From an uncultured bacterium (GTDB lineage: Bacteria; Babelota; Babeliae; Babelales; Vermiphilaceae), in the NCBI GenBank assembly GCA_963702025.1, contig OY969699.1:1176279-1208278 (forward strand): 32,000 nucleotides of DNA, read 5' to 3'. Position 1 is the first letter of the stretch. Each line of letters starts with the position of its first letter. A program made the position numbers and the translations under genes. Below, one piece after another: positions 6,171 to 25,962 of the stretch. The notes beneath the pieces are model-generated. The model made no database searches and was not told the DNA's origin. It saw only the letters and a program-made list of their open reading frames with translations.

Positions 6171-6987
6171 ATTTATGACATGGCTTTGCAGGGCAGGGGA
6201 CCAGCACCCCGTAAAACAAAGATCCAAATTCTGATGTATCTCCCGGAATACCGCTATTAATAATTGTTGCTGTTGCGGTGATTGCGCTATTTACCGGCAC
6301 AGCACCGATCGATACGGTATTGGAAGCATTGCCATTGGCATCGGTTGTCACAGAAATTTGCTTTACCAACAATCTGCCCTCTGGATCATTGGCACTATTG
6401 CTAAAAAATTGCAGAGTAAATGTTGAGCTTGGCACGCTGTTTAATGACCATGCAACATTGAGTCCGGAGGAAGTTACCGTGTATGAACTCAGCACCGGAT
6501 AGTTTTGAAAATCATTCGGGCCAACTGATGGACTCGTGGCATGGTTTCGTGTAGGGCCATCATTGCCAAGATCTATACCAATCAATGTATTGTTATAGAT
6601 GCTATTGCTCAAGATACTATTGCCCACGCTTTGGTCAAGCGCGCTATCACCAACCACAATGCCCTTTTGATTATAGGCAATCAAATTACCTGCGATGAGT
6701 GTAGTTCCGCCGATAATATTATTATTGGACGTGACTAAAATATAAACACCATACTCTCCATTACCCAAATCAAGTCTTCCGAGCAAATCAGTACCTATAA
6801 CGTTTCCCGAAACAGTGTTATTGTCCGAGTTGTTAATAATTTCTATACCATTACCGGCATTGCCTGAAATTACATTTGCCAAAAGAGGATTCAAGGCGAC
6901 TCTGTGCTTAGGTGATCCGTCAGCAAAAACATTAAACCCACTCAAAATGGCAATAATACCTATCGCCAGACTCATTATTCTTTTCAT
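6169..6987 (-). CDS. secreted right-handed parallel beta-helix repeat protein with C-terminal QNYPVL-type beta-sandwich tail
   Basis: GGGAGA Shine-Dalgarno and signal peptide (LAIGIIAILSGFNVFA). Repeated GN.I.GN..GI.I units. Tail IDLGNDGPT...GPNDFQNYPVLSS...FTLQFFSN...VTTDANGNAS...ATATI...GDTSEFG is typical of the C-terminus of large beta-helix surface proteins. Confidence 0.7.
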   Translation of the reverse strand: MKRIMSLAIGIIAILSGFNVFADGSPKHRVALNPLLANVISGNAGNGIEIINNSDNNTVSGNVIGTDLLGRLDLGNGEYGVYILVTSNNNIIGGTTLIAGNLIAYNQKGIVVGDSALDQSVGNSILSNSIYNNTLIGIDLGNDGPTRNHATSPSVGPNDFQNYPVLSSYTVTSSGLNVAWSLNSVPSSTFTLQFFSNSANDPEGRLLVKQISVTTDANGNASNTVSIGAVPVNSAITATATIINSGIPGDTSEFGSLFYGVLVPCPAKPCHK

Positions 6988-17523: not shown

Positions 17524-17565
17524 TCCTTCGATACGAAAACTGCGTTTTCTACTCAGGATGAGCGG
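17524..17565 (+). repeat. structured repeat, copy a (solo, outer stem missing)
   Basis: TCC-TTCGATAC-GAAAAC-TGC-GTTTTC-TACTCA-GGA-TGA-GCGG. Same architecture as the copies at 19817, 25498 and 25867. Confidence 0.7.
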
Positions 17566-17645: not shown

Positions 17646-17663
17646 AAAAACTGGCCGCGCCAG
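17646..17663 (-). terminator. probable terminator downstream of tRNA-Phe
   Basis: On the minus strand CTGGC-GCG-GCCAG is followed by TTTTT. The stem is short (5 bp) but GC-rich. Confidence 0.4.
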
Positions 17664-17703
17664 GCGTAGCTTGCCGAGCCGGAAGGCCCGGATAAGCGTA
17701 GAC

Positions 17704-17778
17704 TGGTGCCGGGGGTCGGAATTGAACCAACGACGCCAAGCTCTTCAGGCTTGCGCTCTACCACTGAGCTACCCCGGC
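17704..17778 (-). tRNA. tRNA-Phe (anticodon GAA), CCA encoded
   Basis: The reverse complement reads GCCGGGG TA GCTC AGTGGTA GAGC G CAAGC CTGAAGA GCTTG GCGTC GTTGG TTCAATT CCGAC CCCCGGC A CCA. This gives a perfect 7-bp acceptor stem, the D, anticodon and T arms, and a GAA anticodon. Confidence 0.9.
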
Positions 17779-18965: not shown

Positions 18966-19811
18966 ATGAAAATAACAAAGGTAATTATCCCGGCGGCAGG
19001 ATGGGGAACACGATTTTTGCCTTTCACCAAAGCAGTGCCCAAAGAGATGGTACCGCTGTTGAATAAACCGGCGATTCAGTACATTGTGCAAGAAGCGGTT
19101 GATTCTGGGATAAATAACTGCATTGTGATAACGTCTGCCCATAAACAGGCGCTTATTAATTACTTTAGTCCGCAACCAGCACTTGAGGGTTTTTTACAAG
19201 AAAAAAATAAACTTTCATTACTTACTGGGTTACAAAATCTGTGCAATTCAGTAACCATGGGCTATATCATACAAGAAACAGCGCTCGGTTTAGGTCACGC
19301 GGTTGGCCTTGCCAAAAATAAGATCACTGATGATTATTGTGCCGTTATGCTGCCCGATGACATTATGGTGAGTACCCCCCCGGCACTCGCGCAACTGATA
19401 ACAATTGCGCAAACCTACAAAGCAAGCGTTATTGCCGTGCAAGAAGTGCCTGATAATGCCGTTTCTTCCTATGGCATTGTTGCGATAAAAAAGCAGATTG
19501 AGCCCGGGATTTTTGAGGTTAGTAGCGTTGTTGAAAAACCCACGGTGGCAAATGCGCCGTCACGGCTTGCTATTATTGGCAGATACATACTTTCTCAAAA
19601 AATATTTAAAGCACTAGATGAACTTAAACCGGCAGCAAACGGTGAAATACAGTTAACCGATGCAATCGCTTCATTAATCGCCAGCGGTGAAAAAGTCCTT
19701 GCCTACACGGTACAGGGAACTCGGTACGATGTAGGAACTCCTCACGGCTGGCTCACTGCCAATAGGGACATGGCACGTCACAATCCAGCATTTTCAGATA
19801 TTTTCGAATAA
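18966..19811 (+). CDS. galU: UTP--glucose-1-phosphate uridylyltransferase
   Basis: N-terminal VIIPAAGWGTRFLPFTKAVPKEMVPLLNKPAIQYIVQEA and the later VEKP, IIGRYIL and LTDA motifs. The ATG is 1 nt after the pheS stop. Confidence 0.9.
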   Translation: MKITKVIIPAAGWGTRFLPFTKAVPKEMVPLLNKPAIQYIVQEAVDSGINNCIVITSAHKQALINYFSPQPALEGFLQEKNKLSLLTGLQNLCNSVTMGYIIQETALGLGHAVGLAKNKITDDYCAVMLPDDIMVSTPPALAQLITIAQTYKASVIAVQEVPDNAVSSYGIVAIKKQIEPGIFEVSSVVEKPTVANAPSRLAIIGRYILSQKIFKALDELKPAANGEIQLTDAIASLIASGEKVLAYTVQGTRYDVGTPHGWLTANRDMARHNPAFSDIFE

Positions 19812-19816
19812 AAACA

Positions 19817-19855
19817 CCCTACGATACGCGTTAAACCGCTACTCAGGGCAAACGG
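19817..19855 (+). repeat. structured repeat, copy b (degenerate, solo)
   Basis: CCC-TACGATAC-GCG-TTAAAC-CGC-TACTCA-GGG-CAA-ACGG, beginning 5 nt after the galU stop. Confidence 0.55.
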
Positions 19856-25450: not shown

Positions 25451-25497
25451 TGTAGTAATTAAGGCTTAAGATAAAAACTAGAGACACAATTGAAAAA

Positions 25498-25549
25498 GGC
25501 CGCTCGTGGTGAGTAGGCTCTGCAAGAGCCGTATCGAATCCATGCGGCC
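25498..25549 (-). repeat. structured repeat, copy c (complete, inverted orientation)
   Basis: The reverse complement reads GGCCGC-A-TGG-ATTCGATAC-GGCTCT-TGC-AGAGCC-TACTCA-CCA-CGA-GCGGCC. It ends 17 nt before the GIY-YIG ATG. Confidence 0.75.
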
Positions 25550-25566
25550 TAAAAATTTAAGATATT

Positions 25567-25854
25567 ATGAATTGCTTTTATGTATATATTTTAAGATGCA
25601 ATGATAGCTCTTATTATGTCGGACATACTGATAATATTGAAAAAAGAATTGCAGAGCATGTCTCAGGTTCTTATCCCGGTTATACACAAACGCGTTTACC
25701 TATAGAGCTTGTTTATATGCAAGAGTTTGCAAGCCGTGATGAAGCCCTCAACGCAGAACATCAAATAAAGAAATGGAATCGAAAGAAAAAGGAAGCACTT
25801 ATTGACAATGATTGGAACTCTTTAAAATTGTTAGCGAAAAAGAAATTCTATTGA
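25567..25854 (+). CDS. GIY-YIG nuclease family protein (small stand-alone YhbQ/UPF0213-like type)
   Basis: FYVYIL (GIY), YYVGHT (YIG), KRIAEH (Arg) and NAEHQIKKW (Glu) in the canonical order; 95 aa. No obvious Shine-Dalgarno. Confidence 0.85.
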   Translation: MNCFYVYILRCNDSSYYVGHTDNIEKRIAEHVSGSYPGYTQTRLPIELVYMQEFASRDEALNAEHQIKKWNRKKKEALIDNDWNSLKLLAKKKFY

Positions 25855-25866
25855 TGAATGTTTATT

Positions 25867-25920
25867 AAACCCGCATGGTTCGATATGATTGCTTCGCAAT
25901 CACTCACCACGAGCGGGTTT
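25867..25920 (+). repeat. structured repeat, copy d (complete, forward orientation)
   Basis: AAACCCGC-A-TGG-TTCGATAT-GATTGC-TTC-GCAATC-ACTCA-CCA-CGA-GCGGGTTT. It starts 12 nt after the GIY-YIG stop. Confidence 0.75.
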
Positions 25921-25962
25921 TATGATTAACTTTTACAATTCTTACCTTGAAGATAATCTTAT

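Follow-up and report, generated by a model that had tools for sequence, protein, structure and literature searches.

Hairpin repeats flanking a GIY-YIG nuclease gene in a Babeliales bacterium: a probable structural variant of the Ssn-related motifs

Introduction

The closest described system is that of the SsnA nuclease of Neisseria meningitidis, a 94-aa single-domain GIY-YIG protein (CDD cd10448) whose gene, ssnA, is flanked by the NTS hairpin repeats (CGTCATTCCCGCGMAVGCGGGAATCYRG) (Chenal et al., Nat Commun 2025, PMC11893778). SsnA binds the NTS only as single-stranded DNA (ssDNA) and on one strand only, cuts it a few nucleotides upstream, and ignores both double-stranded DNA (dsDNA) and RNA (PMC11893778). 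SsnA homologues from other bacteria have “Ssn-related motifs” (SRM) of their own, which they cut; 71% of the homologues have a nearby SRM, and 42% have SRMs on both sides (PMC11893778). The same authors pointed out an architecture like that of insertion sequences (IS) and of REP/RAYT systems, and left open the mobility of the Ssn cassette (PMC11893778).

The catalytic fold of the nuclease considered in the present work is common to the UPF0213/YhbQ/YazA proteins, to the Slx1-like nucleases, and to the GIY-YIG homing endonucleases. The homing endonucleases have DNA-binding domains in addition to this fold, and their substrate is dsDNA in a target gene; as for the UPF0213 housekeeping genes, we know of no cognate repeats flanking them.

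Here, we analyzed a stretch of 32,000 nucleotides (hereafter, the window) from the genome of a bacterium of the Babeliales/Dependentiae, in which a first-pass annotation had described four copies (a–d) of a putative hairpin repeat.

Materials and Methods

Further copies of the repeat were collected through a wide scan with the pattern TTCGATAY-N9-21-ACTCANNNYRAGCGG on one genome per species, which matched at least 112 stretches. A covariance model, named R1, was built from 21 gap-free copies, all from other genomes and none from the window, with the structure specified by hand. An alignment of 149 distinct copies was fitted to R1; an orientation-neutral count on 133 distinct copies, parsed by hand rules, agrees with it.

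The association between the repeats and the GIY-YIG genes was evaluated both motif-first, i.e., starting from repeat-bearing loci, and protein-first, on a sample of 80 metagenome homologues of the window protein; in the latter, repeats of either the long or the short form (see below) were counted, with a background of 0.007 per 200 nt per strand. As a bridge to the Ssn family, viral contigs (IMG/VR) were scanned for the NTS core.

Results and Discussion

Four copies of one repeat in the window

The features of the window are listed below; for each repeat, the sense strand is the one that folds (see the next section), and the orientation given by the first-pass annotation is reported beside it.

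17524-17565, annotated orientation (+), sense strand (-): copy a, solo, without outer stem; sense strand CCGCTCA TCC TGAGTA GAAAAC-GCA-GTTTTC GTATCGAA GGA.
19817-19855, annotated orientation (+), sense strand (-): copy b, solo, degenerate; sense strand CCGTTTG CCC TGAGTA GCG-GTTTAA-CGC GTATCGTA GGG.
25498-25549, annotated orientation (-), sense strand (+): copy c, left end of the cassette; GG CCGCTCG TGG TGAGTA GGCTCT-GCA-AGAGCC GTATCGAA(T) CCA T GCGGCC, with outer stem GGCCGC/GCGGCC.
25567-25854, strand (+): ssn-like gene; its product, a single-domain GIY-YIG protein of 95 aa, is presumably what binds the repeats.
25867-25920, annotated orientation (+), sense strand (-): copy d, right end of the cassette, inverted with respect to copy c; sense strand AAACCCGCTCG TGG TGAGT GATTGC-GAA-GCAATC ATATCGAA CCA T GCGGGTTT.
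25498-25917: repeat–gene–repeat cassette of about 420 bp, with copies c and d as inverted ends.

The four copies are where the first-pass annotation had placed them and their sequences had been given correctly, as verified by direct reading and by R1, which, run with filters off, retrieved exactly four copies: d (51.1 bits, E = 3e-10), a (42.9 bits, E = 2e-8), c (30.9 bits, E = 1e-5), and b (20 bits, E = 0.004), the next match having E = 0.79. The low score of copy b goes together with its degeneracy, i.e., TACGATAC, ACGG, and an apical stem of only 3 bp. The loose pattern CGATAY-N6-30-ACTCA has six matches in the window (two of which are unrelated to the repeat family) versus 0.44 expected, and none of 100 shuffles reached six; this excess, together with the exactly four R1 matches, leads us to reject chance as the source of the four copies. 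A pattern scan for the short type of the repeat (YGAG-N3-9-CGAR) did not retrieve any copy from the window.

Copies a and b are intergenic and lie 6–8 kb from the cassette, the former 139 nt downstream of the tRNA-Phe gene and on the same strand, the latter 6 nt after the galU stop codon. When folded as DNA, copies c and d reach -14.5 kcal/mol (z = -4.4) and -15.8 kcal/mol (z = -5.7), respectively, and copies a and b, which lack the outer stem, fold weakly on their own.

Among the matches listed from the wide scan, the hosts are mostly metagenome-assembled genomes (MAGs) of Dependentiae/TM6/Babeliales, the others being MAGs or genomes named Dehalococcoidia, Myxococcota, Sphingomonadales, Binatia, and further groups. 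A covariance-model search of this kind had been proposed with the first-pass annotation as a check on the apparent covariation: across 100 sources, R1 retrieved 160 copies, the majority of them outside long ORFs, and the covariation holds. Indeed, in the alignment of 149 distinct copies, 94.7% of the cells are paired (68.5% in shuffles) and double-sided changes amount to 442 (119 in shuffles); the covariation score is 0.587 versus 0.185 for shuffled alignments, with 0 out of 500 shuffles reaching the observed value and slid controls not exceeding 0.096. The covariation that had been read from four copies, in the 3-bp helix and in the hairpin, was thus borne out on a much larger set. In the 133 copies parsed by hand, the 3-bp helix is Watson–Crick in 361 out of 399 cells, with at least nine types of triplets, and the inner stems comprise 672 Watson–Crick pairs. 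Moreover, the 5' flank CCGCTC is invariant in all 21 seed copies of R1. These data confirm the four repeats as genuine DNA hairpins under strong structural constraint.

The folding strand and the anatomy of the repeat

Read in the orientation of the first-pass annotation, the inner stems of the 133 copies contain 71 A.C and only 15 G.U oppositions. On the opposite strand, the pair closing the stem is GU in 79, GC in 18, UA in 6, and AU in 4 copies of the 149-copy alignment; in the same alignment, the purine of CCGCTCR pairs with the T that follows the helix as GU in 51 and as AU in 47 copies. G.T wobbles fit only the reverse complement of the annotated strand, which is therefore the one that folds; the orientation chosen in the first place was the wrong one. 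The folding strand reads 5'-CCGCTCR nnn YGAGT(A)-[variable hairpin]-GTATCGAR NNN(T).

On this strand, the T...A beside the 3-bp helix covaries with C...G (UA in 136 copies, CG in 12), and relatives exist in which CGAG...CGAG replaces TGAG...CGAA, which implies that Y pairs with R. The Y-R pair brackets a tandem G.A/A.G, which is followed by a G-C pair. Hence, half of what had been described as invariant internal loops is a helix with sheared-type mismatches: these stretches are conserved in sequence, as had been claimed, but they are in part paired. The claim that the outer stem covaries between copies c and d was likewise overstated, since the two differ only in its distal extension; its core, CCGC/GCGG, shows sequence conservation without covariation.

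The long form described so far corresponds to a short form in which the 5-nt loop has been swapped for TA-[hairpin]-GTAT; at one locus the short form reads CCGTTCG TCC TGAG CTTGT CGAA GGA. We also compared the repeat by eye with the hammerhead, the k-turn, the sarcin–ricin motif, and the T-loop, and the order of its elements fits none of them; what covaries is a plain helix plus a tandem G.A.

As for the T-loop, it had been suggested, as a speculation, that part of the repeat might resemble the T-arm of a tRNA, and one could extend this to a tRNA-derived remnant, or else regard the repeats as due to chance. Copy d does contain a T-loop-like segment (GGTTCGAT), and copy a lies near the tRNA-Phe gene. 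However, both ARAGORN and Rfam give tRNA-Phe alone, with no Rfam family at the copies; the TTCGA of the putative loop is the complement of the TCGAA strand in the tandem-G.A helix, whose flanking pair covaries; and more than 200 distinct copies from several phyla share one architecture. This explanation is refuted by the covariation and by the strand analysis, and we assign it practically no weight.

The apical hairpin behaves differently from the rest of the structure. Between near-identical cassette ends it is swapped wholesale, both in copy c (25516-25530) compared with locus L193 (9930-9986) and in copy d (25887-25901) compared with locus L325 (about 361-377). Differences of this kind look like exchange between copies and not like stepwise compensation; the alignments thus suggest that the apical hairpin is exchanged between copies, as opposed to evolving through compensatory mutations. 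Furthermore, nested repeats were found at L008 (6883-6981), L046 (3963-4062), and L102 (about 6800-6900), where a whole sense copy, CCGC/GCGG outer stem included, occupies the position of the apical hairpin of an inverted copy; as a consequence, a sense-oriented motif is present on each strand at one place. A separate observation is that the core of the short motif (TCGACAAGCTC) occurs in the apical loop of some Sphingomonad copies.

A strand asymmetry that permits G.U pairs is what a structured RNA would show, and the repeats might in principle act as terminators, 3'-UTR stabilisers, processing sites, or small RNAs with a partner, the link with the GIY-YIG gene being secondary. In copies c and d, short T runs come after the GC-rich outer stems, and the RNA folds have z-scores from -4.0 to -5.5; the copies in general favour the 3' ends of genes. 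In detail, copy d shows GCGGGTTTT after the ssn-like gene, and copy c has no T run except on the strand that lacks an upstream gene. Against a role as RNA, a terminator scan was empty at c and d, and a and b lack a terminator-like stem. Moreover, both genes adjoining copy b are antisense to its sense strand and, across 143 copies, the orientation with respect to the flanking genes is only weakly biased; the mapping of the copies on gene ends and strands, another check that had been proposed, thus gave a preference for 3' ends together with this weak bias. No Rfam family was retrieved at the copies with either gathering or E-value thresholds: in Rfam 15, the tRNA-Phe (17707-17778) is the sole gathering-threshold match in the window, and the region of c and d (25480-25940) gave none at E ≤ 10. 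A literature search retrieved no relevant match for the sequence strings of the repeat, nor for a GIY-YIG protein tied to an RNA motif. Lastly, an inverted pair placed around a nuclease gene is the signature of a DNA element, and the characterised Ssn proteins do not bind RNA (PMC11893778). On balance, we consider an RNA function of the repeats improbable.

The GIY-YIG gene and its association with the repeats

The 95-aa protein encoded between copies c and d matches Pfam PF01541 at residues 3–75 (E = 1.8e-20) and has no other domain. Its closest solved structures are those of the UPF0213 proteins BH0048 and EF2693 (1zg2 and 1ywl; E = 3.6e-17), and the housekeeping homologue YazA of Bacillus subtilis, sharing 39% identity with it, scores about as well, so that sequence comparison by itself does not draw the boundary of the Ssn family here. 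The closest homologues in the databases share up to 89% identity with it, and some of them are named from Babeliales/Dependentiae MAGs.

Copy c, in sense orientation, ends 17 nt before the ATG of the gene, and copy d, inverted, starts 13 nt after its stop codon. L193, L037, L102, and L046 are arranged likewise, the upstream copy being sense and the downstream one inverted. Proceeding motif-first, all seven strong GIY-YIG ORFs in repeat-bearing loci (that of the window included) have a nearby copy of the repeat, and most of these loci have a sense copy upstream of the ORF, with an inverted one within about 30 nt past the stop codon. Proceeding protein-first, a sense repeat was found within 200 nt upstream of 51 out of 79 genes and an inverted repeat within 200 nt downstream of 25 out of 73; for 72 genes the two flanks could be combined, with repeats on both in 19 cases and on at least one in 55.

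Among homologues from plasmids, the one of Sphingomonas (58% identity) is accompanied by short-type repeats, and those of Xanthomonas, Legionella, and Variovorax (33–40% identity) have no flanking repeats; at these loci the published SRM string has no match either.

As an observation on gene calling, at L083 (2555-3322) a stop-to-stop ORF runs from the GIY-YIG gene through the repeat, giving peptide tails such as ...LRSSFDTSPSAPTQDERK; in GC-rich genomes, repeats of this family can lengthen ORFs or create spurious ones.

Comparison with the Ssn/SRM system

The window locus resembles the Ssn/SRM system in several respects:

i. The protein is of about 95 aa and consists of a single GIY-YIG domain; it has Y17 and E64, the residues mutated in the meningococcal SsnA (Y17A and E64A), by position count against the numbering of the paper and without an alignment.

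ii. The gene is flanked by hairpin repeats, sense upstream and inverted downstream, and further copies of the family are dispersed and mostly intergenic.

iii. The repeat is directional, with a conserved 5' flank preceding the hairpin (CCGCTCR here, CGTCA in the NTS).

A direct bridge between the two is provided by L299, retrieved from the viral contigs, which harbors a canonical NTS (CGTCATTCCCGCGAAGGCGGGAATCCAG) upstream of a GIY-YIG ORF and an inverted NTS downstream of it, that is, the layout of the window; its protein shares 38% identity over 85 aa with that of the window (BLASTP, E = 2e-15).

The repeats themselves differ. The NTS consists of a simple GC hairpin closed by a loop of 3 nt, whereas the repeat of the window comprises a lower helix with G.A mismatches, a conserved junction, and a free hairpin in place of the loop. 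Accordingly, the published SRM string, HGTCWYN(0-2)YYVSBRHN(0-5)WNVSBRGN(0-2)RNCYNB, has no match in the window and seven in 1.04 Mb of collected loci: it misses the repeats because CTCR replaces GTCWY, because the helix has G.A mismatches, and because the nested hairpin is longer than the loop allowed. This, in turn, places the repeats in a class outside the catch of the published survey.

Taken together, these data lead us to propose, with a probability of about 80%, that the repeats are a structural variant of the SRMs, i.e., the ssDNA recognition sites of an Ssn-family GIY-YIG nuclease, whose gene (25567-25854) separates copies c and d. We infer that this protein binds only ssDNA, and where it would cut, from homology with the nucleases characterised by Chenal et al. 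(2025). The first-pass annotation had supposed that selection maintains a nucleic acid fold to which a ligand binds sequence-specifically, as distinct from a generic terminator; the covariation and, by homology with the Ssn family, the candidate GIY-YIG ligand point in the same direction. Its preference for a role as ssDNA hairpin is likewise consistent with the strand asymmetry, with the weak orientation bias relative to genes, and with the likely homology to Ssn.

Limits and contexts of the cassette

At L193, whose protein is 86% identical to that of the window, both repeats are present and the neighbouring genes are different. In the alignment of the two loci, similarity extends from GGCCGCTCG (25498) to CGAGCGG (about 25917), and the flanks beyond these points are unrelated. 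In L325, whose protein is 89% identical, the cassette adjoins a DnaJ gene, a third context, so that each of the three closest cassettes has a gene neighbourhood of its own. Judging from these alignments, the cassette is conserved as a unit. If the motif is cut like the NTS, i.e., a few nucleotides to its 5' side, then the cuts predicted on the two strands would coincide with the limits of the cassette.

The window was also compared with a sister lineage, represented by six contigs from different samples that are fully syntenic with it; PyrG is 96% identical between the two as protein, and their DNA is about 86% identical. No GIY-YIG ORF was found in the six contigs (101 kb), and the R1 scan of four of them (64 kb) did not retrieve any intact repeat; the GIY-YIG gene is the only extra gene of the window with respect to the syntenic contigs. 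At the site of c and d, the left half of c is joined to the tail of d, corresponding to a deletion between GAGC direct repeats; at the site of a, a 46-bp deletion between CTAC repeats has removed the 5' half of the motif. The site of b has a diverged sequence, about 9 nt shorter, a change that may represent ordinary divergence, given that the DNA of the two lineages differs by about 14%.

Other observations concern the surroundings of the solo copies. Immediately 3' of tRNA-Phe, the minus strand has a GC-rich imperfect hairpin (17652-17706; about 65% G+C in AT-rich surroundings) with TTTTT after it. This hairpin is nearly identical in the sister lineage, where the intergenic DNA around it has diverged; an exact 19-mer of it is absent from the 193 loci compared. 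It may represent a terminator of the tRNA gene or another type of repeat. By tRNA-Phe in the sister lineage, L194 (about 19640-19750) has an insertion of ~125 bp relative to the window, which partly duplicates the start of this hairpin and holds a decayed short-type repeat (CTCCTGAGCTTGCCCAAGGG). Close to copy b, the segment 19888-20390 comprises two adjacent ORFs (83 and 84 aa) with N-terminal hydrophobic segments and Cys-rich motifs (CPTC; CMDC, CCPCPC, CQDC), and at the matching place the sister lineage has called genes of 83 or 71 aa.

The existence of solo, paired, and nested copies, and of inverted cassette ends set in different neighbourhoods, is also what one would expect of MITE- or REP-like elements moved by another enzyme, such as an HUH/RAYT protein or a transposase acting on terminal inverted repeats, in which case the GIY-YIG gene would be a passenger, or a homing endonuclease merely targeting the repeats; the analogy with REP/RAYT was drawn by the Ssn paper itself (PMC11893778). 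However, neither the ORFs of the window nor the Pfam-annotated genes of the syntenic contigs include any transposase-like gene (HUH Y1 included), and the GIY-YIG gene is the only one consistently found beside the repeats, both motif-first and protein-first. Moreover, copies from the same genome differ in helix and apical hairpin, which argues against a recent copy-and-paste from a single master.

The likeness to REP/BIME-RAYT systems concerns short extragenic palindromes that occur as solo, paired, or clustered copies and that, here presumably, form ssDNA hairpins for a small protein whose gene is flanked by the repeats. RAYT is an IS200/IS605-like HUH Y1 transposase, whereas the enzyme of the window is a GIY-YIG nuclease; to our knowledge, a nuclease of this type only cuts and performs no strand transfer. 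In addition, REP hairpins have a common sequence within one genome, whereas helix and apical hairpin vary among the copies of the window family. Mobilisation by another enzyme appears to us improbable.

Returning to the putative Ssn nuclease of the cassette, we advance, tentatively and with more doubt than confidence, the idea that the cassette is an autonomous mobile element, which would move or home via the ssDNA cuts of its own GIY-YIG nuclease at both outer ends. Its non-autonomous derivatives would be the repeats that occur solo, paired, or nested, and the apical hairpin would be an exchanged module. If true, this would define a distinct class of prokaryotic mobile elements, driven by a nuclease without known strand transfer.

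A possible mechanism and role

Following the Ssn model, the following steps can be envisaged:

i. When the sense strand becomes single-stranded, during replication, repair, or recombination or in incoming DNA, it would fold.

ii. The fold would consist of a lower helix (the three variable base pairs, the Y-R pair, the tandem G.A/A.G, and the G-C pair), continued upward by the conserved junction, T(A) plus GTAT, and then by the apical hairpin of free sequence.

iii. Recognition by the nuclease would involve the helix and the junction along with the conserved 5' flank, and the cut would affect this strand alone, at a short distance (a few nucleotides) 5' of the motif.

As to the role of the system, we favour a largely selfish cassette, IS-like or REP/RAYT-like, with solo repeats that are maintained for as long as the genome has the nuclease. 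Alternatively, the system may serve the host by limiting the recombination of ssDNA, as in Neisseria. The host, however, is a Babeliales/Dependentiae bacterium, unlike those of the described Ssn/SRM systems. Babeliales/Dependentiae represent an obligate intracellular lineage, and for an intracellular host the role in transformation control demonstrated in Neisseria is not obviously applicable.

Conclusions

On the proposed reading, a published mechanism would now be attached to a repeat family that resembles an orphan structured RNA, and the Ssn/SRM system would be extended to the Dependentiae, a new host phylum, and to other lineages that contain copies (MAGs named Dehalococcoidia, Myxococcota, Sphingomonadales, and others). 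Moreover, the targets of Ssn nucleases could exceed the complexity of the published string, through a helix with G.A mismatches and a free hairpin, so that surveys based on that string would undercount the system. The limits of the cassette, its three contexts, the nested copies, and the loss of the repeats where the gene is absent provide handles on the mobility of Ssn cassettes. Lastly, as regards ssDNA tools, this clade would offer a nuclease with a predicted site that accepts an arbitrary hairpin insert.
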